Below the pieces are notes generated by a model, which ran no database searches, was not told where the DNA came from, and saw nothing but the letters and a program-made list of their open reading frames with translations. DNA of 60,947 nt, filler included, from Sphacelaria rigidula (lineage: Eukaryota): NCBI GenBank assembly GCA_964200075.2. It is 3 parts of 3 records of this genome, joined end to end, with 100 filler letters (N's around TTAATTAATTAA, not from the genome) between each part and the next. Parts side by side here need not be neighbours in the genome. Positions count along the whole stretch, not along the records: positions 20,352 to 40,599 come from CAXNAA020000553.1; 2 more parts are not named here. One strand, given 5' to 3'. A program made the position numbers and the translations under genes. Below are positions 3,764 through 60,218 of the stretch, one piece after another (positions within the stretch are counted from its first letter, which is position 1; the number at the start of each line of letters is the position of its first letter).

Positions 3764-3990
3764 CGGTAGCCCGCCCAAAAAACCAGCCAAAAAGTGTCAC
3801 GAAAAAAATGGCCATAAAGCGCCTAATGTTTGGAATTAGGCTGCATGAAGCGCCTCATATTGGCGACATTGGCTAGAAAGAACCCAAGCGCGGGAATTTC
3901 CAGTTGCTCGTTGTGTTGGACTTTTCCCGTTTCGATTTACGTGAAGATTTTGCCTCCCAAAACCATGCACTTTTTTGGGTGGGGTTATCG
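3764..3990. mobile_element. MITE with TA target duplication inserted in the gypsy pol
   Basis: TA-CGGTAGCCCGCCCAAAAAA ... TTTTTTGGGTGGGGTTATCG-TA imperfect TIRs; a diverged copy lies at ~52095-52340. Confidence 0.75.
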
Positions 3991-6282: not shown

Positions 6283-6480
6283 GGAATAAGATAGAAGGAT
6301 CGGAACTGTTAAATTGTCAGGGCTTTTAATATAGAATGCTACTGTTGTAAAGGCAGTCAGTGGAGCAATGAACGCTATGTCCGACGTCTCCCCCTGTGTG
6401 TGCACAACAAGGACACGAGTTTGCCATACCCCAGTTAAGGGAATGTATGAGACATCAAACACTCGTAAAGACCTTCTTGG

Positions 6481-6852
6481 TGTTGAGAAAGCCAGTAACA
6501 ACTGAGCTACCCAGTAAGCGCTGAGTCAGTAGCTCAGTGGTTGTTGGCCTTATCAACAAAAGCTAGGCAAAGTCCGGAGTTCGATTCTCACCCGTGACAC
6601 ATTTTTCTTTGTCAATTGATCACGGTCAGGAAACCCCCGATAACACTCCTTGCAGACCTCCGATGAATATTATTCCGGGCAAGTGAGCAACGCGTTGGTT
6701 ACAGGGGCTTCAACCCTGGGATGAAATCCAACGTCGTCGCTTAACAGCTAGACGGACTGCGTTCATTAGCTTTTATGTTGACGGAGACAATAACCATTGA
6801 GCTTCTTAGTCAGCGCTGACTGAGAAGCTCAGTGGGTCAATCCTTCTCAACA
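6481..6852 (+). mobile_element. Non-autonomous element with palindromic terminal repeats and tRNA-like Pol III boxes (copy A)
   Basis: Self-palindromic TG...CA repeats at 6481-6558 and 6776-6852 centred on AGCGCT; A-box TAGCTCAGTGG 6530-6540, B-box GAGTTCGATTC 6577-6587, T-run ~6602. Confidence 0.8.
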
Positions 6853-7028
6853 CCAAGAAGGTCTCCACGACCGTTTGAAATCTCATACATTCCCCTACGT
6901 GGGGTGCGGCAGACTCTTGTCCTTGTTGTGCAGACACAGGTGGAGACGTCGGGTAAAATCAACGATGACAAGAACGCCCCTCAAGTTGCGATTTGATCTT
7001 CTTATAGCCGCAACATCGTCCTTGCTGG

Positions 7029-7030
<2 letters not shown>

Positions 7031-7084
<54 letters not shown>
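7031..7084. repeat. (TG)n microsatellite
   Basis: Direct observation. Confidence 0.98.
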
Positions 7085-7086
<2 letters not shown>

Positions 7087-7121
7087 CAGTAGTGGTGACG
7101 GGGAAATCGCCCTGCTTTTCG

Positions 7122-7432
7122 ACGACAATGATTTTGTGAGATGCAGAGACCAGAGTAAGATTGAGAGCGAGAAGCGGTCAAATAATTAATGAAGTGTTTC
7201 AGTTCCGGAATGCCCCTCCACGAGGCCTGATACACTTTCTGCAAAAGCTTGCCACTGAAGCCTTTAATATCCCTGAGTAGGATATAGTAGGATGCGATGT
7301 GTAGCTGTAAGCACACGACAGTGTTACAGGCAAAGAAAAGCACACAAAGAATGAAAAATTGGCCAAGCTAGAACGAATAGTAAAACTCACCCTCAATCAG
7401 CACTGAATTCTCAATTTTACCACAGTATTCTT
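7122..7432. mobile_element. MITE-like repeat, diverged inverted copy of 59371-59676
   Basis: Shared internal blocks (GCTTGCCACTGA, ATCCCTGAGTAG, GGCAAAGAAAAGCACACA, TGGCCAAG) in reverse complement. Confidence 0.7.
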
Positions 7433-7532
7433 CAACGTGTTCTGCAGCACACAAAAGCGCTTCCCGTTCAAAAATAGAGGCAGAGAGAAATCAATATTTG
7501 CATTCGTCAGCACCACAGACAAGAGAAGATTA

Positions 7533-7780
7533 TAGAGTGATGCTGCGATAGGGTCAGCACTTTTACGGCCTGAGAGTAGAATTGTTAGGAACCCTTTATC
7601 TCATCCAAAACACGACTTTCGAAATAGGTGAGAGTACGCCAGGTTTTTCTTCCAATTTGCTAGGGATATCCCGAATGAATTTGCAAACGGGGATACCCTG
7701 ACCCATATTCTTGTGTAGTTCCTAATTTTAGGAACCGTTTTTGGCCCCAAAAGTGCAGACCCTATCGCAGCATCACTCCA
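7533..7780. mobile_element. Tc1/mariner/pogo-type MITE with TA TSD
   Basis: TA-TAGAGTGATGCTGCGATAGGGTC ... GACCCTATCGCAGCATCACTCCA-TA; relatives at 9750-9865 and 57406-57663. Confidence 0.85.
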
Positions 7781-8154
7781 TATCAGCCAAGATGCGGCAA
7801 TCCTGGGCACCTCGATTTTCTTCGGGGGACTGTGTAGCAATAAACCGCTTCCTTCACGTGACAAATTGGGAATGTGCTGGTAACATGATGCCAATCTGTC
7901 CAGCGACTAATCGCTGAGCGAGAACACACAAGGGACACGGGCGAAGAGCTTCCTCTCTGCCGTTGCTCCTCCGGTAGTTTCGTCATCGACACGCGCGTAC
8001 ACCGCCTTCATTCGGTGCACCTATCCACACGTGCGTAACTGTGCCAAACGTTTTTGCGAATATGCTTGCCCTTGGCACAACTGTTTCGCACAGAACCTGG
8101 ATTTTAGTTGCCCCACTTGAGCCTCATTTTCGTGTTCATTTCCATTTTTGAGGA

Positions 8155-8430
8155 TCCTCTGCTATTATGATGGATATCTCTGATGAATGTTTATACAATA
8201 AATGAATATATATATATCCTATATGGATATGTATCACGATAATACCAGACAAGAATCCACATCTATGGTGGATACCCATAGTAAACGTCGACATCTTTTT
8301 ATGGGATTCCATCACGATGAACATGGATACCCCAGAGGGGTATGGATACCCATGTCCATGGATAATGGGTGTCAGATCCATCGTGGACATCCCAGACGGA
8401 TATCCATGATCGACCTGATATCCATCCAAA
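8155..8430. repeat. Degenerate repeat rich in ATGGATAY/RTATCCAT motifs, in the spacer of the large inverted repeat
   Basis: Repeated atggatatc/atggataccc/atatccat motifs in both orientations. Confidence 0.55.
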
Positions 8431-9354
8431 TTATCAGTGTAACACACACACCGTCAAAGAAAATATATGTAAATAGTGCAAAGTCAGCCCTATATTTGCA
8501 CCGAACTACTTTCAACAATCAATTGTCAAGAATGGGGTTGAACGCGAAAATGAGGTTCAAACGGCATGAAATGGTGCCGAACAGTTACACCAAGGGAAAG
8601 CATCTTCCACCCAAACAATCTGTAGCACTTTAGCAGGTGTGGATGGGTGCACGGAACGAATGCGGCGTAAACGCGTGTCGATGACGATACCACCGGAAGA
8701 GCAACGGCGGAGAGGAAGCTCTTCGTCCACGTTCTTTGTGTGTCCTCGTTCGGTGGTTCCCAATCGCTCGAGAGATTGGCATTTGTTACCAGCAAACACT
8801 CAATATTCAATGTGCCGGCAAATCGTATAATATTGCTGCACAGCCTCCCAAAGAACATTGGGGTACCGAGGGGTGTCGCCTCTTGCCTGTGGAGCTCACC
8901 AATGCGAAGATCGATTTCTCTCTGTCCCTCTTTTTGGACAGGATGCGCCTCTGTGCGCTGCAGAACACGTCGTTGAAAAAGCAGGGCAGATTTCCCGTCA
9001 CCGCTACTGTTCTTTGTCACACACATGCCAGCGTTGCGGCAATAAGAGATCCAACCGCAACTTGGGGGGAGTGTTATTCATCGTTGATTTTTCCCGACAT
9101 GTGTACTTGTGCGTGCGCGACTAGGACAAGGCCATGCTACACGCCAGTTGGGGGGATGTATGATATATCAAACACTTCTGGAGACCTTCTTGTCATGTGG
9201 AGTGAAAACAGATACCTCTGGCGGTGACCAAACTATTGCAGGCGTGACCCAACATAGGGGTGCCGCCATGCTGTAATCTGGAGCACCCGTTGCGTGGGTG
9301 TGTGTGTTTTTCCAAACCTTGCACACGTCGGACAGATCAGGTCATGTCAGATCG

Positions 9355-9931
9355 TGAAAGAACGTGGAAATTCTTCATGTGGCGTGATATCTCGAGAAGA
9401 TGCACAGGGCTAGCACGAGGTGGCGGTAAAGCACGGTTGCTTGTCGAAAATACTGATATTGGAAATTGGCGCTGGTGTGGCCGAGAATCTCAGTGAAGAG
9501 GGTGAAGGCGAAAGATAGAATGGTAGGGTGTGGGAGCAACCCGCGAGTACCCTCGGGTCAATGCGCTACGCTAAGTTGTTGCTTATGGGAATATTCTTAC
9601 TTCTGAGAATCCTAGGGTTTTACATTAACCCTACAGAGTTCTAGAGAAGAAAGGAAAGAAAACCCTAGAACTTTACATTAAACCGACAGAGCCGGAAGTT
9701 CCGCTAACAATCTTAGAATTGTTGCAATCCTCTAAGGATGCGGAGGTTGTAGAGTGATGCTACGGTAGGGGTACAGAAATAATTTCTGAGGTTAAAATTG
9801 TTAGGAGCCCCTGAACCAGACAAAATTTCGCGAAAAAAGTGCACCCCTACCGTAGCATTGCTCTGTACTGCTATTTACCCGATATGAGCGACTATCGAGA
9901 AAACAGACTGATAGCAAATCTGCCTATATCG
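9355..9931 (-). repeat. Copia 3' LTR (contains a MITE insertion)
   Basis: Aligns with 15773-16229 from TGAAAGAACGTGG onward; right end approximate. Confidence 0.9.
9750..9865. mobile_element. Internally deleted MITE inserted in only one LTR
   Basis: TIRs TAGAGTGATGCTACGGTAGGGG / CCCCTACCGTAGCATTGCTCTG; absent at the matching site GGTTGTACTG in the other LTR. Confidence 0.88.
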
Positions 9932-10043
9932 ATGAATGCTACGGAGTGCGCCCCCGTGACGGAAGTTTTCTACAGAGAATACTAAATATGCACGCTGACG
10001 AATATTATAACCGATGCCCTGACCGTCCGAAGAAAAAAGAAGG

Positions 10044-10165
10044 AAAGGCGAAGCAAAAATACTCAGAATGCAGCCGTCTTTACGCTACACACAAAACGTG
10101 GTAGAAAAGGCGAAGCAAAAATACTCATGATACAGACGTCGTTACGCTACGTACACAAAAAGTAG
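10044..10165. repeat. Two ~60-bp tandem copies in the copia 3' non-coding region
   Basis: AAAGGCGAAGCAAAAATACTCA...TTACGCTAC repeated twice. Confidence 0.75.
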
Positions 10166-10192
10166 AACCACGAAGAAAAGCTGTAGAAGTCC

Positions 10193-11640
10193 TCAAGTTG
10201 AAAAATGGTGTCGTGGTAGCTTGTCCTGCTGGAGGTCTGTCCCCCTGAGGACGGCCGCAAGCATTGCCGTGAAGAGAAGCCTAGCCAAGAACTTGGTGAG
10301 GATGCCGCTGAGCTGACCCTTCGTGAAGACGTGGTCGATGGTGATCTTGTCTTCGGTGATATAATCTCGAAGGCCGGCGAACCTGATCGCGAGATCTTTA
10401 TTGCTCCTGCTGTTGTACGAGCCTTCTCCCGCGAGTAGTAGGGTGCCCTTGTTGTCGCAAAATATGCGGGCGCTACGGAAGGTCCTCCATCCGAGCTCTT
10501 CGAGGATGCCGCACAGGTAAAGGGCTTGTTTTGCGCAAGAGCTCATGGTAATCAGCTCCGCTTCGGTGGTAGATTGGGCTGAGATTTTCTGAACGCTAGC
10601 CGAGAAGTGTATGACACCCCCAGCAAAGAAGTAGATTCCTCCCGATGTAGACCTAGCCTTTTCCGGGTCGCCCGTGCTTTAAGAGGCGTCACAGAACCCG
10701 GTGAGCTCGAAGCTGCTGTTCCGGCTGTAGGTGATGTGAAGGTCAGGGGTGTCGCGCAGGTATCGCGGAATGCGTTTCACGGCCCCGATGTGTACTCAGG
10801 TTGCCTTGCCCATGAACCGTGTTGCCTGTGACGCTACGAAGCAGATGTTCACGCGGGTACACGGGTACAGGGAGATGAGAGACCCCACGATGCTCTGGTA
10901 GTCGGGGGTGTCATCCTTGTCAAGCGGCACGCTGCCTTCGGGCTACGCCGTTAGCTCGTTGCCGATTCCAGGTGTGTGCACTGCGTTGCAGTTGGACATG
11001 CCGCACGTTTTCATTAGCGGCAATACGTAGGGCATGCTGACGGTGCCGAGTTGCTTGTCCTGGATGATGTCGATCCCCAAGATTCTAGTGGCATCGCCAA
11101 AATCTATCATAGAAAACTTGTCCATGAGTGTTTCCAGGATTTTGGCCACGATTGCGGAATTGGGTCCGGTGATGAGGAGGTCGTCCACGTACAGAGAGAG
11201 AATGATGTAGTCGTCTCCGGTGCCCTTGACGTATACGCACGCGTTGCTCACGTTCGGTTTGAAGCCAAGTGCTCGCAGATCGTCAATGGTGCTGTTCCAT
11301 GCTTTTGGTGACAGCCGCAGCCCGTAGATGGACTTGTGCAGTTGCATGATGAGCGGTTGCCCCCGCGAGTTCTTCTTTTCGAACCCGGGTGTCTGCCGCA
11401 TGTAGACTTCCTCCTCGAGCTTCCCGTTGAGAAATGCCGTAGAGAAGTCCATGGCTGAGACGCTCCATCCGTCGGCAGCAGCGATGGCAAGAAGCAGACG
11501 TTGACTCTCGATACGGCAGACCGGCGCAAGTGTGTTGCCGCAGTTGCTGCCGTGCCTCTGCGACCAGCCCGTTCCGGCGATTCTGCCTTGAAATCGCCCA
11601 TCCATTTTTACCTTGAATACTCAGCGTGAGCCGATGATGC
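10193..11640 (-). pseudogene. Copia RT / RNase H remnants
   Basis: MDFSTAFLNGKLEEEVYM, LHKSIYGL, LYVDDLLITG, IFCDNKG motifs. Confidence 0.92.
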
Positions 11641-11644
11641 TATG

Positions 11645-12053
11645 TGTTACGGCGGGTATCGGCTATATATGTGCAGTAGGTTTTATTCCATTCGCATATT
11701 GGTGTTGTGTTGCATTTTGGCGGGCCCCTGGCCCCCCACAACTTTCAGCTACCCAGTCACTGTCGTTTAGCTACCCAGTAGCAGCACCTAATAACAAAAG
11801 CTATCAGTCAACACTTGGAGGTAACTCGCTTGCAAGCAAGTCAAGAGCACTTCCCTGCACGTGAAAGTGAGTCTATGTTATGCATTATGATTTAGTGCTG
11901 GTTTGGACTCGAGGGTCTGTGAGCCACGAGCTGGAGAGTTACTCCACTCGACTGCACTTATTCATTACGGCCGGCCGCTTGCTTATTGCAACCCCCGGCC
12001 CGGTGTGTTCCTTTAGAGTGATACCCACGTAACTTCGTGGCCAGTCCATCACA
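11645..12053. mobile_element. Solo LTR of another retroelement inserted in the copia RT
   Basis: TATG-TGTTACGG...CCATCACA-TATG (4-bp TSD); removing it restores the frame PPGHSIIGSR*VFKVKMDGRF. Confidence 0.85.
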
Positions 12054-12182
12054 TATGGCCTGGAGGAACTGCCTTCGGAGGGACCAGCTCGAAAACCTGG
12101 AGGTAGATGAAGCTCTGGTGCTCCTTCCGGGCGGCCGTCAGCCATTCCACAGAGTGAGGCGAGGCTTACCTCCTTGAAGGTG

Positions 12183-13460
12183 TTAGTTACAGGGATGGCC
12201 ACTGGAGAAGTGACCTTGTGTAGGTCCACAACGCTGATGTAGTGACTCACTTGTTGCATTAGCGAGTACGACTCTTGGCGTGCAGCGAAGTCCACGGCAA
12301 GCGCCAGCTTGGTTAGGGCCGGATAGAGAAAAATTCTTCGCGGCGGTAGCCGCGGGTTTAGGTGATGATGATGTTGCCGATCGTAGTTGCCGCGTAGAGC
12401 CGAGCGGTGCTTCGTTCGAGTTGTCTGCTGCGTCCAACTTGCTGATGCCGTTGAAAAAGTGGCCGTTGGTGTTGTCGTTGATGATACTGTCATCGGCATT
12501 GTTGCTGTCCAGCGCGACGTCCTCATAGATTGGGTCGTCGCTATCATCTTGCCCCCGAGCGCCGGTTGTGGTGTAAACAGCGACCGGCGGCGTCTCTATG
12601 AAAGTGACGTTGCGGGTGCTGATGACTTGCCCTGTGTGGCGGTCATAGATTCGGGAGGTAGGCTTATCGTTGTCGTAGCCGATAAGAACTCCTTCGCGCG
12701 CCCTAGGTTCTAGCTTGCGTAGATGCCCCTCATGGTGGACGAAGGCACGCGCCCCGATGGTGCGGAGGAAGGATCGATCGGCGTGCTTGCCGAACATCCT
12801 GTAGTAGGGGGTGCTCCCGCCAATAGTTTTGTTCGGCGGGCGGTTGAGGAGAAAAACGTAGTGGCCGCCATATTCCCCCAGAGGGACTTTGAAACCGCTG
12901 CGCCATTGAGAACGTCACCGGACCACGTCCATGATTGTGCGCCCGTCGCGCTCGCTGAGGCCAGCTTGCTCCGGCGTATTGGGCGAGCTGAACTGTTGGA
13001 AGATCACGGTGGACTTGTAGTACTCGCCGTAATAGCCGGCGATAAATTCGCCGCCACCGTCGGCCCATAGGTGCTGAGTTCGAAGTCCCAGCGGTATAGC
13101 CAAGTCTTGCACTTATTTGACGAGGATTGTGAGCGCTTTATCCTTGGTGAAAATGAAGTAGACGGCTTTGAGCTTGCTGTAGTGGTCGGAGTACTTCGTC
13201 ATGTACCTGAAGTTTCCACGCACCGGGGGCGTCACGGGTTCCAATAGGTTCGTACCGACCGATTGCAGCCTTTCGGAGATGATGGTTGAACCCGGCTTGT
13301 TTCGAATCAGCTGTCTGACGCCCTTGTTGATTTGGCAAACCTCGCTCGAGGTCAGCGAGTCGGTAAACTGAACACCCGTCTCCGCGATGTCCCGCGCCAC
13401 CGACACAGTGCGCTCGGTGGGATCTCCCAGGCGCTGGTGCCACGTGTTTGCCCCCACCGC
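12183..13460 (-). pseudogene. Copia integrase region remnants
   Basis: WHQRLG, DGGGEF, SPNTPEQAGLSERDGRTIMD, FLRTIGARAFVH..KLEPRAREGVLIGY. Confidence 0.9.
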
Positions 13461-13793
13461 CGGCATGCCGGTAGCCGGTTGCACCGGCAAAGGGGAAGTT
13501 AAAGTGGCTGGCAACCCCGACGTGGCCGTCAGTGCCGGCGTTGTTGCTGTGGAAGCTCTAGATGCCGCTGTGGCCCCGCTACGAATTAGACGTGAGGCCA
13601 CTGCTNNNNNNNNNNTCCGATCGGCAGTGTATGTCCAGAGATGACTCTAGTTGGAGAGGCTGCCTGCGCACGGGTCTTTATTGAAGGGGCTAGCTTGAGA
13701 TCGAGATAATCGATAGCGGGGCAGTCGATATGTTTTCGAAGTAGAATCTCGAACAGTGCGACGTCCAAGTATGACTGCTTGGCGACAACCGTG

Positions 13794-15560
13794 TTAACCC
13801 ACTTTGAGTGCCGCCGTGCCTCCCGAAAGCAGGTGACGCCCTAGCCCCGGTACGTTTACGGCCGGCAAGTAGATGTTATAGGTCGTGCCGCGGTCGTCGA
13901 TGGCGCTCACGGTGACAGTGGCCATGCTGACTCCGGCGAGAGTGTTGTTGCCGGCAACGACGATCGTCACCGGCGGGTCGAGCCGGTTGAAGTCGGACAT
14001 GCGCGATTCGATATCTCTAATGAGGTGGCTGTCGACGAAGTGTGACGAAGCTCCGCAGTCCGACGCCATGGTGAACTGGATTGGGTCTGGGTCTGGTGTC
14101 GAAGAGCTGGCTGCCAGGAAAGAGTAGCCAATGCCGGACGGGGGGGGGGGGGGGTACGGGGGCGGAATGTAGATTGTTATACGGTTTAGTCGTCGCTGAT
14201 GGCGCGGGCGTAGCCGCTGCCGCTGGAGCTGGGGGTGAAGCTGTTGCTGTAGTCGTACAGCCCACGGTGACAGCCGGGTTGGTCTGTCCTGAGTTCGATC
14301 TTCCGCCACTCCGACGTCCGTTATTGTTGCCGCGGTTCCGGCCTCCGCCACCGCCGCCGCCGGCGTTGTTGTTGTGGTTGTTGCTGTTGCTGTTGCTGTT
14401 GTTGTTGTTGTGGTTGTGGTTGTTGTTGTTGTTGTTGTTGTTGTTATTGTTGTCGTCGTCGCCACCATTGCGACTGGCTCCGTCGGTCCCGTTAGAGCCG
14501 TCGTTCTTTTGCCGTTGCTGCTTCATGCAGTCGACGTTGTCGTGGAGATGCGTTACGTGGTAGCTGCACGACAAGTTGCTTCTCCGGCCAGATGTGGATG
14601 GCGAGCCAGCGTCGTGATCGTTTTGCAGGATGAAGTAGGATGATTTCTTGTGTCTAGGCCTATTGCAGTGATCGCACATGCCCCGAAACGATGGAGTCGC
14701 CGTCATAGCGGACTCGCGCCATTTTGTGCGCGATGGCGCCGACGATTCACCGCGCGCCACGCGATTGGCGAACATGTTCCGAGCAGTGATCTCGATCTCT
14801 TTAAGCGTTATCTCGGGATCCCTCTCCGCCGCACAGCGAAGTGTCTCGTACTCACCAATCAGGCCCTCGAGAATGAGATCCTGCATGCGGGCGTCCGATA
14901 CGGGCTCGTTGATCTGCTCGAGCTCGTCCCGCTTTTGATGCATGGCCAGGATGTACTCGTACGGGTCTTGATCGGGCGCCTTAGCATAATCAAAATGCGC
15001 CGTCGTTGTGAGGAAAAAATGAGGGGTGCGTTTTGTTTAGAGCAGTCTACGCGGCTTGACCGTTCGGCTTTTGACCCTCGCGCGCGGCAAGGATACTTAT
15101 GAAGCTGTTGGTCGCTCCCTTGGTGGACAGCAGGAGGATGCTGAAGAGCTGCCTGTTATAACCATCCCAAGCGTCAAAATCTGATTAGTTGCTAATCGAC
15201 GGATGGGTGAACAGGTCGTCGGTAAGGATTGTTGGCGTGGGGATTTCCGTGAATCGCCCGCCGGGCAGGCCGCCCTCAGCTCCGATGGCCTCGGTTCTTC
15301 CGGTCCTCCCGAAGTAAGCGCTGGCGCCGGTGTCGCCTTCTGAGCCTCTCGTCCTGCGGGTTGAGACGGTTGGGCTGGTCGCAGTCCTGCAGAATCCTGC
15401 GCTCGTGAGTGACGGCGGGGCGAGACTGGCCGTCCAGAATCCAAGACTTTTCGCGATGACGAAAGTCAGCCGTTGCGCGGAGTGTCCTCCGCCACGGCAC
15501 GAAGTGGTGACCATCGAACTTGCCGATGTTCCTGATGAGTTGACAAGCCGCCGAAGTGGA
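13794..15560 (-). pseudogene. Copia gag-protease remnants
   Basis: LILEGLIGEYE (UBN2-like), degenerate CCHC knuckle, SDCGASSHF protease motif. Confidence 0.85.
14365..14460. repeat. (GTT)n-type trinucleotide repeat in copia gag (poly-Asn on the minus strand)
   Basis: Direct observation. Confidence 0.95.
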
Positions 15561-15758
15561 CTCTCCCATGACAGGCACTGGCGGTTGAACTAGAAGCAGT
15601 CGAAGATGGAGATGGTCTCTCGCCGAAGTTGTTCTAGACGAAAGTCTCTGGGGAAATGCGGTGGTCCTCGGAGGTTCTCCCTCGGAGGTGCTCCCTCGGA
15701 GGATGTGGCTTGAAGTGACAGACCTAGAAAAACGTCGATGCGATTTGCTGATCAAGGT

Positions 15759-15772
15759 CGAGACTCATAACC
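15759..15772 (-). promoter_or_regulatory. Copia primer-binding site, half-tRNA(Met) type
   Basis: Minus strand GGTTATGAGTCT directly follows the LTR CA; complementary to a CAU anticodon loop (cf. GGTTATGGGCCC of Drosophila copia). Confidence 0.75.
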
Positions 15773-16229
15773 TGAAAGAACGTGGAAATTCTTCATGCGG
15801 CGTGATATCTCGAGAAGATGCACAGGGCCAGCACGAGGTGGCGGCAAAGCACAGTTGCTTGTCGAAAATACTGATATTGGAAATTGGCGCTGGTGTGGCC
15901 GAGAATCTCAGTGAAGAGAGTGAAGACGAAAGATGGAACGAGAGGGTATGGGAGCAACCCACGAGTACCCTCGGATCAATGCGCTACGCTAAGTTGTTGC
16001 TTATGGGAATATTCTTACTTCTGAGAATCCTAGGGTTTTATATTAACCCCACAGAGTCCTAGAACAAAGAAATGAGAATCTTAGAACCTTGCACTAACCC
16101 GACAGAGCCGGAAGCTCTGCTAACAATCTTAGAATTGTTGCAATCCTCTAAGGATGCGGAGGTTGTACTGCTATTTAATATGGGCGACTATCGAGAAAAC
16201 AGACCGATAGCAAATCTGCTGTTATAACA
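15773..16229 (-). repeat. Copia 5' LTR
   Basis: TG...CA, homologous to 9355-9931. Confidence 0.92.
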
Positions 16230-23515: not shown

Positions 23516-24213
23516 TTAATTTGTTCTCTCCACTGCTGCGAAGTCGCGAAGATAATTCTTGCTTCTGGGGGCTCGGTCCAAGGTTCAAATTCTGCAACAT
23601 TCCACATATCCGATGTATCAACCATCTGCACTATCACGAGTCATCCATGGGTGTCATCTTTTCCGAATCCGTTACACAGGGGTGAGATTTTCGCGTTTTG
23701 TCGAGACCGGCGAGGGTTGGGGGTGCGTGTTTGCGATCACAGCCCAATCTGTTCCAGAGAATACTCATCGCCACAGCCATCGATTGGGATGCGACCTTTT
23801 GCATCCTCTGCGCCAAGACGACAGCTACAATTGTACAGGTTGAATTCTTTTATTTCATTAGGATGCGAGTTTTATAACGAATTGACTGAAGAAAACATAG
23901 TTTTGTGATTTTCTCGATCACCGTAACGTCTTAGGTAAAACGAACCGGTGAGACTGTAGCTAGGACAAATACACGCCGGTGCGTAGCCGAGCCACGCCGT
24001 GGTTCGTCCTCCTCCGGCACAAGGAAACTTCAAAAGCGTGCAATGGAAACCCTACTCAAATCGCAAGTACTTTGAGGGATTTTGCGGCGTGCATAGTCAG
24101 AGGATGAACGTGATCTCCGGTCTGTTCGCGCTTTCGGTCGGTGACATTTTTTGGGCTCACTTTGGGGGGTCAGGCACGCCCATAACAGTAGATCCGTTTT
24201 TTCGCGATTCCAC

Positions 24214-26610
24214 CTTCATGTTTGGGCTGTGTTTTGGCAAGTTCAAGAAAAAGGAGGGTGGGCTTCTATATTTCATGTCTATGTCCGGGCTGTGTTATGA
24301 CAGGTAAGCTTCTCTATTTTATGTCTGTATCCGGGCTGTGTTATGGTATGTTAAATAAACAGCAGGGTTAGCTTCTCTGTTTCACGCCTATGTCCGGGCC
24401 GTGTTATGGTAGGGTAAATAAAAAGCAGGGTTGTCTTCTCTATTTCATGTCTATATCCGGGCTGTGTTATGGTAGGTTGGAGAAAAAGGAGGGTCAGCTT
24501 CTCTGTTTCATGTCTATGTCCAGACTGTGTTATGGTAGTGTAAATCATGAGCAGGGTTGATTTCTCTGTTTCATGTTCATGTCCGGGCTGTGTTATGGTC
24601 GGGTGAATAAAAAGCAGGGTTGTCTTCTCTATTTCATGTCTATATCCGGGCTGTGTTATGGTAGGGTAAATGAAAAGCAGGGTCAGCTTCTCTGTTTCAT
24701 GTCTATGTCCACACTGTGTTAGTGTAGGTTAAAGAAAAAGCAAGGTTGATTTCTCTGTTTCATGTTCATGTCCGGGCTGTGTTATGGTCGGATAAATAAA
24801 AAGAAGGGTTGGTTTCTCTATTTCATGTCTATGTCCGAGCTGTGTTATGGTAGGTTGGAGAAAAAGGAGGGTCAGATTATCTATTTCATGTCTATATCCG
24901 GGCTGTGTTATGGTAGGTTGGAGAAAAAGGAGGGTCAGCTTCCCTGTTTCATGTCTTTGTCCGGGCTGTGTTATGGTCGGTTAAAGAAAAGGCAGGGTTA
25001 GCTTCTCTATGTCACGTCTATGTCCGGGCTGTGTTATGGTAGGGTAAATAAAAAGCAGGGTCAGCTTCTCTATGTCATGTCTATGTCTGGGCTGTATTAT
25101 GGCAGGTTGGAGAAAAAGGAGGATCAGATTCTCTATTTCATGTCTATATCCGGGCTGTGTTATGGTAGGTTGGAGAAAAAGGAGGTTAGCTTCCCTGTTT
25201 CATGTCTTTGTCCGGGCTGTGCTATGGTCGGTTAAAGAAAAGGCAGGGTAAGCTTCTCTATGTCACGTCTATGTCCGGGCTGTGTTATGGTAGGTTAAAA
25301 ATAAAGCAGGGTTAGCTTCTCTATGTCATGTCTATGTCTGGGCTGTATTATGGCAGGTTGGAGAAAAAGGAGGGTCAGATTCTCTATTTCACGTCTATGT
25401 CCGGGCTGTGTTATGGTAGGTTGGAGAAAAAGGAGGGTTAGCTTCTCTATTCCATGTCCATGTCCGGGCTGTGCTATGGTCGGTTGAATAAAAGGCAGGG
25501 TAAGCTTCTCTATGTCACGTGTACGTCCGGGCTGTGTTATGTTAGGTTAAATAAAAAGCAGGGTCAGCCTCTCTATTTCACGTCTATATCTGGGCTGTGT
25601 TATGGTAGGTTAAATAAAAAGCAGGGTCAGATTCTCTATTTCATGTCTATGCTCGAGCTGTGTTATGGTCGGTTAAATGAAGGGCAAGGTTAGCTTCTCT
25701 ATTTCACGTCTATGTCCGGGCTGTGCTATGGTCGGTTGAATAAAAAGCAGGGTTAGCTTCTCTACGTCACGTATACGTCCGGGCTGTGTTATGGTAGGTT
25801 AAATAAAAAGCAGGGTTAGCCTCTCTACTTCACGTCTATGTCCGGGCTGTGTTATGGTAGGTTAAAAAAAAAGGAGGATAAGCTTCTCTATTTCATGTCT
25901 ATGCCCGAGCTGTGTTATGGTCGGTTAAATGAAGGGCAGGGTTAGCTTCTCTATTTCACGTGTATGCCCGGGCTGTGTCATGGTAGGGTAAAGAAAAAGC
26001 ACGATTAGCTTCTCTATTTCATGTCTATGTCCGGGCTGTGTTATGGTAGGTTGGAGAAAAAGGGGGGTCACCTTCTCCTCTCAGTGTACATGTCTGGGCT
26101 ATGTCATGGTCGGTGAAATAGAAAGCAGGGCCAGCTTCTCTATTTCACGTCTATGTCCGGGCTGTGTTATGGTAGGTTGGAGAACAAGGATGGTCAGCTT
26201 CTCTATTTCATGTCTTTGTTCGGGCTGTGTTATGGCAGGTTAAAGAAAAAGGAGGGTTAGCTTCTCTATTCCATGTCTATGTCTGGGCTGTGTTATGGTC
26301 GCAAAGAAAAGGCAGGGTTAGCTTCTCCATTTCACGTTTATATCCGGGTTGTGTTATGGTCGGTTGAAGAAAAAGGCAGGGTTAGCTTCCTTATTTCATG
26401 TCCATGTCTGGGCTGTATTACGGTCGGTTCAAGAAAAAGGCAGAGGATTCTCTAGTTCATGTCTCTGTCCGGGCTGTGTTATGGACGGTTAAATCAAAAG
26501 GAGGGTTAGCCTCTCTATTCCATGTCTACATCCGGGCTGTGATCTGATAGGTTCGAGGAAAAGGGGGGTTATCTTCTCTATTTCATGTCTGTATCCGTGC
26601 CGTGTTGTGG
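24214..26610. repeat. 63-bp tandem satellite, about 37 copies
   Basis: Unit ~TCATGTCTATGTCCGGGCTGTGTTATGGTAGGTTAAATAAAAAGCAGGGTTAGCTTCTCTATT. Confidence 0.97.
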
Positions 26611-28548: not shown

Positions 28549-30272
28549 TAAAGTACCAAAATATCTCGATATTTCCCCGTCTAGCACCATGGCACTTTTG
28601 GCACATTCTGGCATCTTCCTTTACCATCCTCCAAATCTTTCCTCTGACCCCCGTTCCCCACAGCTTTTTCCAGAGCCCGTTCCTCCATACTGCGTCATAA
28701 GCCTTTTGCACGTCCAGAAAGAAACAGTACGTTGTTAGCCCGGTGTCTTTCCCACCCTGAACAATCTTACCTGGTGTCTACACACTGTCTACGCAACAAC
28801 GGTTTGGTCTGAAACCTACTCGTCCCTCGCTGATTTTGTCTTCCTTTTTTAGCATCGTTCCTACTCCATCATTCAGAATCTCACGGAACGTTTTCCCTAC
28901 CGCCCTACCGTGTTCAGTAGCGCCATCCCTCTATAGTTTCCTGGGCCAGCCCGGTCTCATTTTTTGGAAATCTTGACTACTACTCCTTTTCTCCGCCTCC
29001 TGGGTGGCTACTCGTTTTTCCAGATCCAGATCCAGTTACACAGCATAACCACCATGGTAATCATTTCTTCCCTCCCGTAATCAGATATTCGTTCACGATT
29101 CCGTCTGCCCCTGGTGCCCTTTTGTTCTTGAGTCTAGCAGCACACTCCTTTACTTTCTCTCTGGTGAACTCTCGCTGCAATTCTGTCGAGCCACTATCCT
29201 CACATTTTGACGTCTCTACGTTTGCTTCTGCCCACTCGTTGACCTCTTTATCGAATTCCGTGTCGAACTTCGTGTCAGTTTTTGGTGTTCCCAGTTTACG
29301 GTAGTACTCGACTAGCACTTCTCTCTTCCCCTTCGAGCTACCGACCATTTTGCCGTTCTGTGCCCGTAGCGTGGCTATCCCCTTGTCCACCTTTCTTGCC
29401 TGCTTTTTTTCCATCACCCCTTTCATCCCTGCCCACATTTGTGTCATCCCGCCATCGGAATCTTCACTTGTGTTTTTCACTACATCTTCCCACACCCCCT
29501 TCTTTTTCTCTGTACCATAGTTTTACTTCCTTTCGAGCTTTAGTAGACTCCTCTCATCCTCCCGTACGTTTTACTCGACACGCATCTCGCGTGGGCCTCC
29601 CTCCTCACTCTTACAGCCTCTTTTACTTCCTCATCCCACCATTTGACTGCTCTGTTGCATACGATCAGTTTCTTCCACATGACTTTACTCGCTGTGTTCT
29701 CGACCAGCTGCTCCCATCCCTCTACAATCTGCGTTCCTGCCCGACTTCTCTCCATTGCGGTATCAACTGCACCTACGCGTTCCAACAGTTCGGAAGAATT
29801 CACTGCATTTTTGGCCATCTCTTCTTGGAGCTCTTGCTGTTTATCTCCCAAATCTAGTTTATCGATTCTTCATTTGTACAACTTCCTACCCCGCCTATTT
29901 CTTTCGACTCTCGCCTGTTGACTTTTCCCCCATGTTAGGCAGTGATATTTAGTTCTCCCGTCCTCCGGGGATACACGTACTCCCATGTCTTCACTATTTC
30001 CATTCTCTACCACTACATAGTCAAGAACGGAGCGTTCTCTCTCGTCTTTGCGGTTTCTAGTCCATGTCCATTGCGCGTCTGGCTTTAGTACGCTATCGTT
30101 TAGCGTCTTCATCTCGTTATTCTCAAGGAACTTGAACACTCCTACCCCGTTCGTGTACTCCTCGTATTTCCCAATGAGATCATCCGGTTGACCTGCTTTT
30201 CCTACCCTTACATTAAAATCTTTCGCTAACATTACTTCTCCTTACGTTTTATACTTGAGTATATCTGCTGCT

Positions 30273-30730
30273 TGTTAGATATACAACATATCCACTGAGC
30301 TAAATAGTCAGCGCTGACTAGCTAAACAGTCAGCACTAACCGTCTAGCTCAGTGGGTATGGTGAATATATAACAAAATTTCAACGGGGGCCCGAGAGCTG
30401 GTTACATTTATTGGACTACGGTGTTTACCCGAGGATTATCACCCCTCTAATCGGCGCTGCCCCAAGCGATTCGCCGGCTTACAGGCGGGAACATGTGTCT
30501 TCATCCTGACGGCTGACGATGTATACCATGCTTTTAGATGCGTATCCCAGACTTTTAGATGCGTATCCCAGACTTTTTCTCAGGTTGTTTTCCTTCTGCA
30601 GAAAAAAGCGTCGAGATAGTCTCGCAGGGATCGAACCCCGGTTGTACTTTTGTTAGATACATAACAAATTCACTGAGCTAAACAGTCAGCGTTGACTGTT
30701 GAGTTCAGTGGGTATGTTGTATATCTAAAA
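30273..30730 (-). mobile_element. Non-autonomous element with palindromic terminal repeats and tRNA-like Pol III boxes (copy B)
   Basis: Palindromic repeats 30273-30374 and 30651-30730; minus-strand TAGCTCAGTG then GGTTCGATCCC; flanks CTGCT / CGGCT; removal restores the LINE frame FGEVAADILKYK. Confidence 0.85.
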
Positions 30731-33700
30731 CGGCTACTTCTCCAAAGTTACGCTGAACATCGTTCACCCTACTCTTCGATTCTGGGGGCATATAGATGCT
30801 CCCCACGAAGAAGTCCTTCGTTCCTCGCTCTCCTGTTACCCTTATCCATATGCTCTCGTCGAATTTCGTGTCATCGATCACTTCTATACTGTCACACAGG
30901 TGCTCCTTGACTGAGAATCCTACTCCCCCCGCTTCCCTGCGCTTGGGTTTCTGTCCCTTCCGCTTTTCCTCCGTCCATTCGTACTCTTCAAGTTTGCTGC
31001 ATCCTTTTCCCGCCCCCTCTGTCTCCCATGACTCTTGAATTCCTACTGTATCTAGATGGCGCTTCCTTACTTGTTGGGCTATCTCTATTCTTTTGCGCTC
31101 GTCTTTGGCGGAGCCACACACGTTCCACGATCCTATTCTCAACTTCCTCTCCGAATCAATATCTGCTCTCTTGCGGGCCCCTATCATATTCTTGTGCCTC
31201 TTACTTCTACTTTCCCTTGCTTGATTGCTCTGGCCCTTGCCGGTTTGGTCTCTGCCTGGTTGATTCGGGTCGCTGTGTCTCCTCCCCTTCCCCTTCCGGG
31301 CATTTACCTATTCCTGCCTCTCTTTCCCTCCGTTTACCCGTGCACTACGTCTTAGGCTTATTATTCCGTGAGCAAAGCATACTCTCTATCCTACCTTTCT
31401 AACCCGTGCCGACACCTTACTTGTTTCTATCCCTGTCCACTCCTCGCTCGCGCTCTGATTTAGTGCGACTCCGAATTGTTCTCCCTTCCTTTCTGCATTT
31501 CCTGTTGCCAAACAGTATAATCCAACTCCATCGCATTTCTTTTTTACCTCTATTCTTGTCATGTCGCTACGGACTCCGAAGACCAGCCCTACTAGTACCT
31601 TACCCGACCACTCTTTACTACTCCATCCGCCCTTCCTTACCGTCTGTCTCTCGATCTCCTTCGAGAGAATCTTTAGCTTGTTTGTTCCAAGCGTATTGGT
31701 GGGATATAGTCCACGGGGGGATGACAATAGCGTACACTACTCGAAACTATCCGCACGACGAATCAGCATCGACAGGGAGGAGTTACAGCGACTTGTAGCT
31801 GAGTTTTAGAGGCCCCGGTGGCACAGAGGTGCACAGTACGCCGCAAGGTTGGGCTTGCGGCAAAAAGCCCATCCCAGGCTGATCACCTCACATCAAGTAA
31901 GTCGCACTTGCTTCCTCCCCGTCGAACCCTCAAATACCTCTCCGTGTCTTACTTCCCTGCGCGCAGTCACCGACACAGCGCTCTATACTGGCCTCATTTT
32001 GAGCTACCGTCTGCAACATATTTCAGAGCCGAAAAGCCCATTCATGGCGACCCTGCGTATATCTCTAGTCAGAGGGCCTCCATTTCGTCCTGGTTGTATC
32101 GTCGTGGGCGGTGCGTTTTGTTGAACGTATGGCTGAACACGCCCCCGCACAGGGTGGTTCCAGGCAACTGTGGCTCAACCACGAGTGGCTGCCAGCGTAT
32201 TTTAGATGAACACGACATATATATGTAAACAGAGAAGCTAGGGACCCCCCGAGAAGGGCGTCTTGCCTGCTTCTGGAAAGCACCAACGAACGAAGCACGT
32301 AAGGGTGCGCTATGTCGCCATTTTCCTCGGCATATGTAGCCACTCATATTCCATCGCGAGTGTGTGACCTAGCGGGCACACCTCTCAAATGCGCACAGCA
32401 AACGTGTTGGCGGTGGCACGAAATATTTCACATCTTGGTGGGCCATTTGCGCATTCTGCGGAGTCACGGGTCCTGATTCGACGGAGGCACAATTGCTCCG
32501 TACCTACGGCGGCACCGCCATACAACTTGGGCAAGTTTTGGAGACGCGCGCATTAGGTTGGGTAGGATGTCCATTGATGCTTTGCGCCAACCTCACAACC
32601 TTCCGAGTTTCAGCACTGGTACACACTTGTCACGCGCATAGGTGCCCACATCCCTTGCCCGACTTATCTCGTGCGAAAGCACCAGCGTCGAGCCCTCTCC
32701 ACTTATCTCTGAATCCCAACAACATTCGCGTGACTTTAGCGCCGATGCAACTCTAGTGTGCAATGCTAAAAGCTCGATGCGTGCCCAACCGCCGACGCAA
32801 CCACCGCGGGACGTGGGCGCTGGCAGCATGAACACTGTCAACTCGATATGAAAGGATCTACGTATCGGAGTGAACGGTGAACCTACGTTTTGTTCACGTT
32901 GCTCACGGTGGAATATGAAACGCGGAAGAGTGCCCAGGAGTTGGTCGCCCAGTGCCACAGTGTTCGAAACTCGTACCGTGTGATACAGTAGCCATCACGT
33001 GACGCGACGCTCTTGTTGCTAGTGTTGATGCTGACCCCATGTTTGTGTGTTTGTGACGCGCGCAGCTACTCATGAAACAGTAGTTCTTGGCCCAACACGT
33101 GACCATAAATATCCAAGAGTACCGTCGCACGCCGGGGTAAAAGGGAGGAAGAAGGGGCGAAGAAATCAAGTCCGCGGAAGCTCAACGTAGATCTATTGTT
33201 GCAGACAACAGGTTGAATTTGATTGACCGTCCCAAAGCGTTTATGACTTCGGGTTTCCCCCCAAATTGTGTGAGTGTATGTGACTGTAACTGTATGCACG
33301 AGTTGCACAAGACTTGTCCGGAGGTTCAGATGATCAGAGGTGGGGCTATCGCGCGAATCTCCGTTGAGAACGATCCCCCAACGACCTCCTACAGGAGGAA
33401 CAACCAACGGACAGCAATTGCACCGGGATTCTCCGCTAGCTAGTACTGTACTCGCATTGCACGGTGCTATGCCATGCGTTTGCAGGATCGAGGACCGGTC
33501 TAGTCGGATTGGGCACGCACCCCAACGGGACACGACCGGGCTTCGCGGTTTTGGGGATGGCGACGCAAGGAGTAGTGGCATTTGCGCGGCAGCGGTAATG
33601 ATGACGTCGGCTTCGCCGCTAACGGTCGGCCTACGGGCGTGTAAATTTCACCAAGGTGTGACTCCCTGCAACGTGACCTACAGATGGCGAGGTTTCCGAC

Positions 33701-40927: not shown

Positions 40928-47104
<6,177 letters not shown>

Positions 47105-50100: not shown

Positions 50101-50280
50101 ATGCACCCCTTAATCCAAATACTACACCACACGACATCACTCCCTGTTAACCACCTCTCCACCCATCCAACACGTTCACCATTCTAGCAGCAGCCGGAAG
50201 TCGTAGGGACATCTAAGGAGTAGCCAACGAAAACCCCTCACGAGCTACTCTGTGCATCACCCCCCTTCCCCAATATCACC

Positions 50281-51423
50281 ATGTCTGCGCTAGAAAGCGG
50301 TACCGTGCCGACAGCCCTACGCGCGCTATATTCTAAGCATGGCCAGAATCAAGTATTTAGATACGTCGACAGTGGCATCGTGACAGGCGATGCCGTAGAT
50401 GCGCTGGTCGCCCAGCTCTCCGATGTCGATCCCGAGCGCATCAACGATCTCTTCCGTTCTACCGTCGGCGACAGCGGTGATGCAAAGCCGTCGTCGGCCG
50501 ACATGACGATGAAGCCCATCGAATCCTTTGTCAGCCTAGATTCGACCGCGGCGGACACCAAAGAGAAGTGGTACTCCACGGGGCTCAAGGCCGTGGCTGA
50601 GGGCAAAGTGGCTGTCGTAGTGCTCAGCGGGGGACAAGGCACGCGGCTCGGCTTCTCTGGGCCAAAGGGCATGTACAACATCGGTTTGCCTTCGCAAAAG
50701 ACGCTGTTCCAGCTTCAGGCGGAGCGACTGCGAAGGGTCTGCGCGCTGGCCGAGCAACGCTTCCCTAATGGCAGTGACGGAGCGTACGGCGCTGGTGACA
50801 AAGGCCGCATCAGCATCCCTTGGTATATTATGACAAGTCCGTTGAACGATGCCATGACACGCGAGTTTTTCTCGAAGAACAGGTACTTCGGCGTGGCCGA
50901 AACGGACGTGTTTTTCTTCCCGCAGGGTACCTTGCCGTGCATGTCGAACCCCGATGGCAAGATCATGCTCGAGAGCGCGGGGCGCGTGGCGATGGCGCCT
51001 GACGGAAACGGGGGGATCTACCCGGCGCTGCAGCGGACGGGCGCGCTCGCCGACATGCGGACGCGAGGGGTCGAACACCTGCACGTCTTCTCCATCGATA
51101 ATGCCCTCGTGAAAGTGGCCGACCCGTACTTCTTGGGGTATTGCATTCAGAGTGGCGCGGACTGCGGCAATAAGTCCGTGTGGAAGGCGGAACCCGACGA
51201 AAAGGTCGGGGTGGTCGTCAACCGTGGCGGCAAGCCCTGCGTCGTGGAGTACTCCGAAATGGATGCCGAGGCATGCGAACGGCGCGACGACTCGGGGAAA
51301 CTTGTGTTCGGCGCGGGGAACATCTGCAACCACTATTTCTCCCGGGCGTTCCTGGAAGACGTCGTGCTGCCTGGGATGGGCGACATGTATCATGTGGCGC
51401 ACAAAAAGATCCCCGCCGCCGAG
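50281..51423 (+). CDS. UAP1: UAP exon 1 (381 codons)
   Basis: Long GC3-rich ORF ending at a GTAAGT donor. Confidence 0.95.
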
Positions 51424-53956
51424 GTAAGTACTGCTTTTGTACAGTACAGGCAATTCGGCGCAACAGTGCTGTGGTACCATTTGTGTCCCTTGCCTAATGA
51501 CAGCTGACAGGGTTCGTTTTTCATCAGTTGCGACGTGGAGATGAAGCGCAATGGTACGACAACGCCGTGCAGTACAGAATCTTGCTCGTCCCCTTATGAT
51601 CTCGTGTTTTTCTCGCCTTTTTACTAATGTACTTGCTGTCTTCAGCAAAAAGACAATTTGAGATTGATGAATCATCGCCTGGGGTGAGACCAACTCTTGC
51701 GGGTTCGGGAGAAAAAAAAACTTGTTGAAAACTGCCTTTTGGGCCCTTCTACGTCGTCATACGCCCGAGAAGAGGGCTAGGCGGATGTTGATACCTTGGG
51801 ATGACTTGCTCAACTCGTTGCCCTGTCCGAACGATCTCAACGAGCAGAGCAAGTCATTCCAAGGTGTTAACATTCGCCTAGCCCTCTTTCCGTAAAAGCG
51901 ATGGAGAAGGGCCCCAAAGGCAGTTTGCAACATGATTTTTTTTCAAAACCCATGATAATTTGCCCATCTTTTTTTCAAATCAAATAAGGGAACACAGAAC
52001 GCCCCGCACTACTGAGGCAACAAAGGGGAGTGCTGCATAGGCCAATGCCAACGACGAGAGCTTGTCAACGTCACGATCATTCCCATTGGCGGGCAATGCC
52101 GCGATGATCCCCCTCAAAATCAGCCCCAAAATTGCCACGAAGAAAATGGACATACAAAGAACGCATGATTGCTGGTTTCAGACTGTATATGGGGCGTCTC
52201 ATGTGGGTGACATTGGCGAAAATGATCCCAAGCGTGGGAGGTCCCAGCTGCTCGGCGCGCTCAGCTTTTGTGATTTCCATTCAACGGTAGATTTTGCCTT
52301 CTCAAACTAGCCACTTTGGGGAGAGCAGCTATGGCGGCATCACTCTGGCAGTATTTTTTAATGCTGAAACTAATATCGTAACGAGTCGTCTGAGTGTGGA
52401 TACAAGAAGTGACCACAGCCATGGGAGAGTTTCAACCCTTGGAGCGCCCGTAGATGGATGACTGCACCGTTGTGGCTGTATGCCCCGCAGTTCTGCATCG
52501 AAAGCTGAACATGATGCCGATTCATCTGAAATTGAAATCGCTTCAACTTTCTGTTTTTTCGTTTCCTTTGCTGCTTCGAATATGTCCCGCGTATTGATAA
52601 TCTCGTGTCAAAATTTCAGCGCCTAGCTCCTGATATTAAGCGGTGGGTCACCTGACAACCGCCAACGGGAAGTGTTGCCCGGCCCAGCTCGTAGACGTTA
52701 CAGGGCTTTGCCAACCGTGTGAACTGCTATGGCTCGTGTTCCGAGGTTCTACCGCTGACAGTCCCGCAAGTTCTCGGAGGACAGCTTTCGTGCTGCTGGT
52801 CGTGACCATGCACGAATATTCCTCACTTGCGACATATGTATGGCAACGAGATTTTCTGATGTAGGTGTCAATTGCCGAACTGGATGATGACTGTAGGACA
52901 CAGATTGCCTGACCCACCGTGGCGGTGAAACGGTTGAACTTCATACACGAGCTAGGTAGGGGCTGAAAAACCACGAGACACACGTGACATGTTGTCACAG
53001 GGAAAGGGGGTGGCTCTTGCTGACGGAGAGAAGCTGCTCACCAACTATCGTTGAACGAGGGTCCGCCGTCAATATTGTTCCGAAATGATTATGCCTCGCG
53101 CCCGACCATTGGAATCAAAGTGAAGAGGAAGACAGTTTCACCCAGTAGAGTTCACCACTTGGAATGGTGAAGTTGACCCCACTTCGTTCTAGTCTGGACA
53201 CCGAAATCTTTGATAAGGACTGTGCTTCTAGCGTGCGCAGAACGTGTTTTGTCTAAATCGGCGCCTGCAGCGTCGATTTGAGGTCTGGCAACGCACATCT
53301 TTCACCCTCCCTGCCTGAGGGTTCTCGGTATGACTCGGTTGGGGTCAAGGTTAGGGCATGGATCAATTCGAAATCATAAATTTCCGAGAAAGGTCTTCAC
53401 CCTACTAAATGATGGAACTAACCTCGTTTCACCCTTACGTGCTTTTTTTATCGCCCTGCCCCCCTCCCATTCACCGTAGCTACCACCCTACTGTAACTAC
53501 CACCGTACCCCACGCCCGCCCCCTGGACCCCCCAACCAAAAACAGGGGCCGTCGGGGGACACTGTGAAACCGACAGCCAACAACGGCATCAAGCTCGAGT
53601 CGTTCATCTTCGACGTCTTCCCCTTGTCCCGAAACATGGTGCTCTTCGAAAGCCCCCGAGAGGACGAGTTCGCCCCCGTGAAGAACGCTCCGGGGACCCC
53701 GACCGATTCGCCCGACACCGCTCGCGAGATGATCTCGCGGCAGGCTCGGCGGTGGGCCGTCGCGGCCGGAGCTGAGCTGCAGACCGGGAGCGGCGGCGCG
53801 GGTGAGGCCGGTGGAGCCGGTAACTGCTGTGAAATTTCTCCGTTGGTTTCGTACGGCGGGGAGGGATTGAAGGACAAGGTGGGGTTCAAGAAGCTGTCCG
53901 TGCCGTTTTATCTCAAAGACGGGGGGGAGGAGGTCGAGGAGGAGGGAGGACGCTAA
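50281..53956 (+). CDS. UAP1: UDP-N-acetylglucosamine pyrophosphorylase, 517 aa: exons 50281-51423 and 53546-53956
   Basis: LSGGQGTRLG..PKG, WYIMTS, FFPQG, APDGNGG, VEYSE, GNICNH, HVAHKKIP | GIKLESFIFDVF, REDEFAPVKN, EISPLVSYGGEGL; GAG|GTAAGT donor and CAG|GGG acceptor in phase 0. Confidence 0.96.
51711..51944. repeat. Long intronic hairpin (foldback MITE or small-RNA precursor)
   Basis: ~110-bp arms with a ~17-nt loop at 51821-51837. Confidence 0.85.
52095..52340. mobile_element. Diverged copy of the MITE at 3764-3990
   Basis: Shared AAAATGG.CATA, GCG.CTCAT, GACATTGGC, CCCAAGCG.GGGA, AGATTTTGCCT blocks. Confidence 0.6.
53546..53956 (+). CDS. UAP1: UAP exon 2
   Basis: AACAG acceptor; GPSGDTVKPTANNGIKLESFIFDVF...TAA. 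Confidence 0.94.
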   Translation, partial: GPSGDTVKPTANNGIKLESFIFDVFPLSRNMVLFESPREDEFAPVKNAPGTPTDSPDTAREMISRQARRWAVAAGAELQTGSGGAGEAGGAGNCCEISPLVSYGGEGLKDKVGFKKLSVPFYLKDGGEEVEEEGGR

Positions 53957-60170: not shown

Positions 60171-60218
60171 GATGAATCATCACTACTACGAATAACCGAA
60201 CCCACGATTTCTTCGGCC

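Follow-up and report, generated by a model that had tools for sequence, protein, structure and literature searches.

Small non-coding mobile elements with palindromic ends and a split tRNA-type promoter form several related families in Sphacelaria rigidula

SINEs derived from tRNAs carry a split promoter whose A-box and B-box stand at tRNA-like spacing, DIRS elements use a tyrosine recombinase and leave no target-site duplication (TSD), and older work on Xenopus describes elements that combine inverted repeats with Pol III boxes. Cassandra carries its Pol III boxes, 5S-derived A and C boxes, within its repeats and has a standard PBS and PPT (PMC7215508, PMC6934838). In Ectocarpus, which served as our comparator for transposable-element curation, the curators' table lists DNA5-N1_Ec32 as a non-autonomous, unclassified element of 502 bp with a 5-bp TSD and 103 annotated copies (PMC12477816); further comparison literature is given in PMC10045372 and PMC13570524. 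Here, we analysed a 60,947-nucleotide stretch of Sphacelaria rigidula DNA (the window) that carries three small inserts with palindromic ends, an architecture of which we found no description in the literature searched, a scope that left aside Repbase, Dfam and subscription journals.

The clearest insert, at 30273-30730, is 458 bp long and splits exactly the APE-type endonuclease frame of a LINE on the minus strand. The 5′ part of that frame (30736-31307), which was the target of the insertion, matches Pfam Exo_endo_phos, and, with the insert and a single TSD copy taken out, the frame resumes in register on the far side (29990-30271, one stop) and runs into a DFN-RVG motif. The flanks on the plus strand read CTGCT (30268-30272) and CGGCT (30731-30735) and match at 4 of 5 bases, so that both the divided endonuclease and the 5-bp duplication of the original prediction were confirmed. 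Elsewhere, the window holds a 63-bp satellite with more than 30 copies at 24177-26500, with related single units, inverted, near 42606-42675, and a 427-aa uninterrupted frame at 50224-51507 with a UDP-glucose pyrophosphorylase family match, whose intronless length is unusual for a repeat-rich eukaryote region.

Both ends of the insert fold as hairpins (z -7.9 and -6.6; reached by 0 of 200 shuffles), as expected from their predicted palindromes. The left palindrome (30273-30374) is 102 bp long where the F1 family norm is 78 bp, because of a 23-bp duplication at its centre, and the right one (30651-30730; core 30684-30697) is 80 bp long and reads ...CTAAAA, a mutated form of ...CTAACA, so that the claimed TG...CA termini do not hold at this end. 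The self-complementary, conserved 14-bp core, AGTCAGCGCTGACT (30306-30319), has 524 exact copies in the genome, while a control sequence has 0. Pol III boxes, called against the general consensus for such boxes, lie where a split tRNA-type promoter had been proposed. An A-box stands in the inner arm of the left palindrome on the plus strand (30345-30355), where an intact B-box was found in 0 of 29 F1 copies; the usable, tRNA-spaced pair is on the minus strand (A-box 30671-30680; B-box GGTTCGATCCC, 30627-30637), followed by a T6 run (30602-30607) that may act as a Pol III terminator. Inside the palindromes lie a left inner inverted repeat (30375-30395, plus strand), which starts with an A-run and is degenerate in this copy, and a right one (30638-30650, minus strand), which ends in a T4 junction. 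In the interior, a half-core with a short stem-loop after it lies on the B-box strand (30428-30461, minus), and a 21-bp tandem duplication private to this copy is at 30531-30572 (plus). A separate 115-bp near-perfect hairpin was seen near an F1 copy (L002:2501-2615).

The original prediction saw the same architecture at 6481-6852 and 60219-60665; the plan is indeed shared, but the three copies belong to three families rather than one. The F2 copy (6481-6852, plus strand) has palindromes at 6481-6558 and about 6776-6852 and a B-box at about 6576-6587. It has no TSD; its left flank (6381-6480) is a 100-bp inverted duplicate of 6853-6952. What these flanks duplicate is the left end of a set of nested inverted repeats (6854-9192), whose three arm pairs suggest a fold-back element. 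The F3 copy (60219-60666, minus strand) has a half-deleted left palindrome, a B-box at 60567-60577 and the TSD GGCC at 60215-60218 and 60667-60670, where a 5-bp CGGCC reading also fits. Its host, at about 60045-60925, is a very high-copy repeat bounded by C-runs that resembles the description of Ectocarpus RTEX-N1. An unclassified Ectocarpus repeat, Sower (PMC3145265), was set aside as a candidate relative of the palindromic element, as by size it appears to be the same as RTEX-N1 in the table of PMC12477816.

Similarity searches of the genome with the three window copies returned 84, 174 and 598 candidates, of which the best 40 per query were scored; the second query took in a flanking repeat. 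Loci fetched by similarity, core position and junction patterns, a sample biased to well-preserved copies and counted without the duplicated locus C7604, fell into at least six related families (F1-F6), and F3 has three arm types (F3a, F3b and F3c) on one interior. Each end is built as arm, core and reverse arm, 74-90 bp in all, with TGT...ACA termini. Between families the arms share 26-36 identical bases of 39-45, and the core, terminal TGT/ACA and A-box are retained. Paired copies measure 219-917 bp, and their longest stop-free frame spans 67-75 aa. Taken together, these results indicate that the insert belongs to a real multi-family group of small non-coding mobile elements. The group may occur in other organisms, as a metagenome contig (L237:1-60) holds a truncated palindromic end with core and A-box, 33 of whose 39 bases agree with the F1 arm; the viral contigs searched gave 0 matches.

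TSD length is family-specific. Exact 4-bp TSDs flank 7 of the 16 paired F3 copies, or 11 of 16 when one mismatch is allowed, and 5 of 9 F3 solo palindromes called by script, a count that keeps 3 truncated or one-sided elements, while an exact 5-bp TSD occurs in 0 of these 25. Among 8 paired F1 copies, 3 have an exact 5-bp TSD, 5 have one with at most one mismatch, and none has 4 bp. The one scored F4 copy has a 5-bp TSD, the one F6 copy a 4-bp match despite its TGTT ends, and no intact pair was obtained for F2 or F5. As a null, mismatched flanks gave a 4-bp match in 8 and a 5-bp match in 1 of 1,560 pairs. A consistent 5-bp TSD across the group was thus not borne out, the length being 5 bp in F1 and 4 bp in F3, whereas integrase-type ends as such were: TG...CA termini were found in 15 of 16 F3 and 6 of 8 F1 paired copies. 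The elements have been mobile. Contigs from 3 of 4 public runs join across the F3 copy of the window and skip 452 bases, which gives the empty target within its high-copy host repeat, and lone palindromes retain a TSD. Contigs from three runs presumed to be RNA also cover this copy, a coverage that speaks neither for nor against its expression. Tandem units with one palindrome in common occur in direct (L055, L038) and inverted (L043, C7162) orientation, and two elements (C552, C21274) show inverted flank duplications.

The split promoter recurs across the group. The A-box, kept in all families, lies 6-13 nt from the palindrome centre in 6 of 8 single-copy arm seeds, as it does in the majority arm of F3b; an intact B-box is present at one end in F1 and F2 and at both ends in F3, and the F6 B-box is visible by eye, with F4 and F5 giving no clear call. 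In 6 of 6 family interiors, the B-box strand carries the half-core and short stem-loop at a distance of 59-89 nt from the far end. On this strand, 33 of 40 F3 copies have no T4 across the interior, and the opposite strand has a run of at least T5 in 40 of 40. A run of at least T4 follows the B-box in 22 of 29 F1 and 8 of 12 F2 copies, and one lies downstream of 17 of 20 host tRNA genes, four of which have only T4, so that most F1 and F2 transcripts could end at about 90 nt. Compared with 20 host tRNAs, likeness is confined to the T-arm, for which F2 outscores all 30 shuffles when set against tRNA-Thr. No tRNA was predicted in the window by ARAGORN, the only Rfam matches, on three loci, were to hairpins and fell below threshold, no 5S rRNA similarity appeared in these three loci at E up to 1, and folding z-scores of the interior singled out neither strand. 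We rejected the interior as a tRNA-Glu relic or complement serving as a half-tRNA priming site, because its scores against 20 of 63 listed tRNA genes were in the shuffled range. At the repeat junctions we found no PBS, since both open with an A-run and not TGG, and no PPT before the other repeat, where the T4 junction is pyrimidine-rich on both strands; the lack of a clear PBS or PPT had been noted in the original prediction.

Our leading reading, to which we give somewhat less than an even chance, is that these elements are Pol III-driven parasites of LTR-retrotransposon machinery whose ends are each rebuilt by fold-back synthesis. Transcription would start near the centre of one palindrome, from the A-box in the inner arm and the B-box just inside, and some transcripts would read on to the far core, giving an RNA made up of the interior and the inner arm of each end. 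With neither tRNA primer nor PPT, reverse transcription would be primed by fold-back at the self-complementary cores, and at each end the inner arm would serve as template for the outer one. A hairpin-ended intermediate might then be nicked at the inner CA junctions and gap-repaired into two full palindromes with a TSD, a putative route from hairpin-ended cDNA to integrase substrate. The borrowed integrase would be Copia-type for F1 and F4, with TGTT ends and 5-bp TSDs, and Gypsy-type for F3, with TGTG or TGTA ends and 4-bp TSDs; solo palindromes may be short products or the outcome of recombination between left and right ends. Several observations stand against this model, among them the T-runs after the B-box in F1 and F2 and the predominance of one-arm over symmetric substitutions. 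In addition, the ends are alike across subfamilies, for which independent fold-back alone does not account, and the single F6 copy combines TGTT ends with a 4-bp match. A broader proposal, which we regard as doubtful, is that the group is a distinct class of Pol III-transcribed, non-autonomous retroelements in which fold-back priming at palindromic ends replaces PBS, PPT and LTR strand transfers, which switches between Copia and Gypsy integrases through its outer arm bases only, and which possibly integrates from a hairpin-ended intermediate.

We then turn to the source of the integrase. The genome holds 1,683 integrase candidates, of which the best 150 were scored and 50 loci examined. All 50 align to Copia or Gypsy pol except L121, an integrase alone at a contig end, and L150, which we discarded as an integrase-only element because it is a Gypsy that lost its RT (L150:1154-5876; gag and integrase, an internal RT deletion, no TGG-type PBS after the 5′ LTR). 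PPT and PBS motif scans at these loci gave mostly noise, and L233 was rejected as a chance match. Two Copia elements have a PBS that starts with GGTTATGAG (L141:2009-2020 and L152:2219-2230), presumably of the half-tRNA priming type. The 50 loci contained no element sequence, apart from a match to an unrelated insert in an F6 copy. One Copia in the genome has a 5-bp TSD and one Gypsy a 4-bp TSD, and the Ectocarpus curation table gives 4 bp in its Gypsy rows and 5 bp in its Copia rows where a TSD is stated (PMC12477816). Since TSD length and terminal bases sort as Copia versus Gypsy and no other class was seen in the 50 loci, the sequence comparison is consistent with the predicted borrowing of an LTR integrase. 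Long copies with the same ends that encode integrase or RT, for which the original prediction proposed a search, were not found: in 40 loci of about 10 kb, picked by core position, the sequence between paired cores contained no pol or transposase, and there was no autonomous partner with palindromic ends in these loci or in the 50 of 1,683 integrase candidates of this fragmented assembly.

Purine tracts preceding the F3 terminus were sought, with 86 matches against 38 for a control, and this search revealed an LTR family with a PPT, a PBS and 4-bp TSDs whose first 8 bases equal those of F3. Its members start TGTGACGG like F3, with TGTTAC variants; this likeness emerged from a query designed around the F3 end, and the numbers are small. 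No pol match was found in a 1.8-kb piece of a full element. The family has 235 candidates in the genome, among them a solo LTR in the window (11645-12053, plus strand; TGTTACGG/TGTGACGG start; 4-bp TSD TATG), a candidate helper type that is not part of a palindromic element and is nested in the window's degenerate Copia at 9347-16167 (minus strand; 405-bp LTRs, 92% alike). The window also has a Gypsy remnant at about 850-3850 (minus strand) with an RNase H domain in the frame that spans 1833-2738.

The same survey bears on a cut-and-paste origin. The elements could be MITEs of an unseen Ginger2-like transposon, in which palindrome and inner repeat together form a long TIR, the arm symmetry is maintained in the chromosome through cruciform or template-switch repair, and solos are minimal MITEs. 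Ginger2/TDD is defined by TGTNR termini and TSDs of 4 or 5 bp (PMC2836005), the element is TIR-bounded, and the curators themselves remarked 'possible Ginger?' on Ectocarpus DNA5-N1 (PMC12477816). However, no Ginger- or IS481-like transposase gene was seen among the 50 integrase loci, L121 being the one integrase-only locus, at its contig end; rve_3 had no match in the 150 scored candidates; no such gene lay between paired cores in the 40 loci; and the Ectocarpus table, as available, has no Ginger row bearing a transposase (PMC12477816). The A- and B-boxes, the strand-specific internal motif and the divergence of the F3a, F3b and F3c arms on one interior are also left unexplained, and we judge this origin rather unlikely.

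The pattern of substitutions within ends was analysed in 121 palindromes with both arms, against a permutation null. Substitutions common to both arms were in excess in F3a (37 observed, 7.4 expected), F1 (19, 7.7) and F2 (9, 2.7), and not in F3b (1, 0.2; n=6). In 19 two-ended elements (2 of 21 were dropped, their inner side being unrecognised), the arm pairs within an end shared 14 and 12 derived substitutions, where 2.0 and 3.9 were expected. Direct-repeat arm pairs shared 5 and 3 (2.5 and 5.2 expected), the outer-arm pair 4 (3.7 expected), and the inner-arm pair showed a small excess (7 against 2.9, p 0.015, one of six tests). Derived substitutions are therefore common to the arms of one end and not to direct-repeat arms, which makes these ends unlike ordinary LTRs. 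That one arm templates all four was discarded as the principal origin of symmetry (2 four-arm against 21 one-end events). This within-end homogenisation agrees with the predicted part of hairpin ends in copying; the same pattern would follow from template switching after insertion. Substitutions confined to one arm are far more frequent than symmetric ones (252 vs 37; 166 vs 19), and an allele that recurs may be found in either state, as at F3a position 7 (3 symmetric, 13 one-arm). Duplications near the centre, found in 9 of 96 complete palindromes, fit copying at birth or later conversion, and in a comparison of age and symmetry F1 leaned weakly to accumulation with age (rho 0.33, p 0.08), where the positive control failed in F3. 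Repair after insertion, as a Ginger-like origin supposes, is consistent with the within-end sharing, the one-arm alleles and the age data.

These counts weigh differently on an unusual TRIM, in which the palindromes would be ordinary LTRs, with U3 in the outer arm, R in the core and U5 in the inner arm. As in Cassandra, they would be copied from a Pol III transcript through normal strand transfers, here with priming of a non-canonical kind, and later conversion would restore the symmetry within an LTR. Such a TRIM accounts for left and right ends changing together between subfamilies, where no F3a/F3b chimaera was seen, and fits the terminal direct repeats, TG...CA ends, TSDs, solos with a TSD and tandem units on one palindrome (L055, L038); moreover, PBS-less TRIMs and LTR elements are known (PMC6934838). 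It also predicts direct-repeat sharing, but only 2 plus 1 exclusive events of this kind were counted against 21 within one end, PBS and PPT are absent at both junctions, and some tandem units and flank duplications are inverted. We consider it unlikely. A DNA-only route, in which cruciforms extruded with the help of Pol III factors are cut at the core into a dumbbell, an LTR integrase nicks the inner CA junctions and gap repair through the hairpins rebuilds both palindromes, would yield exactly the observed product with its outer arm copied from the inner arm, would account for the inverted flank duplications (C552, C21274) and would find no obstacle in T-runs, but it is very unlikely, as no resolvase or nuclease was identified, the F3 T-run strand bias and the strand-specific internal motif go unexplained, and LTR integrases normally act on their own cDNA inside particles.

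If the fold-back parasite reading is true, an RNA lacking PBS, PPT and true LTRs can be mobilised by the reverse transcriptase and integrase of LTR elements, and a single lineage of parasites 300-500 bp long can exploit both Copia and Gypsy. The categories of SINE, TRIM and MITE would then blur, and the elements would offer a minimal substrate for testing the requirements of LTR machinery. The alternatives, too, leave an architecture that we did not meet in the literature searched and that would be classed by curators among unknown DNA transposons. With hundreds of palindromes of 80-90 bp in one genome, local rearrangements are likely to arise from them.

Compared with known systems, the palindrome-ended element is not a SINE. 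By sequence it shares with tRNA-derived SINEs an apparent A/B-box promoter and T-arm similarity to host tRNAs; unlike them, it has fixed TG...CA at both ends, a short TSD of fixed length and terminal repeats, and neither a simple-repeat or LINE-like tail nor a variable TSD of the SINE type was found. An internal copy of terminal sequence recalls the internal complementary region of DIRS. Priming without a tRNA, which is conjectural here, has parallels in the Tf1 group and at the GalEa hairpin site (PMC6934838), although these self-priming elements retain ordinary LTRs and a PPT. TGTNR termini, bounding TIRs and a 4- or 5-bp TSD are shared with Ginger1, Ginger2/TDD and their MITEs; in contrast, the CCGG/CCGT target of Ginger1 was found in 0 of 12 exact F3 TSDs, a transposase-bearing partner was not found in the loci examined, and the Ginger description, in the part compared, has neither palindromic TIRs nor Pol III boxes (PMC2836005). 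The element works most like a TRIM such as Cassandra, yet lacks the PBS and PPT. Both are short and non-coding, with terminal direct repeats, TG...CA, TSDs, solos and repeat-sharing tandem units (PMC7215508, PMC6934838). Unlike Cassandra as described there, its tRNA-type boxes are split over repeat and interior and each repeat is a near-perfect palindrome. Its variants are common to the arms within one end and not between ends, there is no excess of direct-repeat sharing of the kind left by direct-copy repeats at insertion, and subfamilies change at both ends. Finally, the TGTTG-CAACA termini given for DNA5-N1_Ec32 are those of F2, and the table entry, our sole basis of comparison, describes a 9-bp imperfect TIR only, with no palindromes or promoter (PMC12477816); by that description, DNA5-N1_Ec32 may be a catalogued but undescribed relative.
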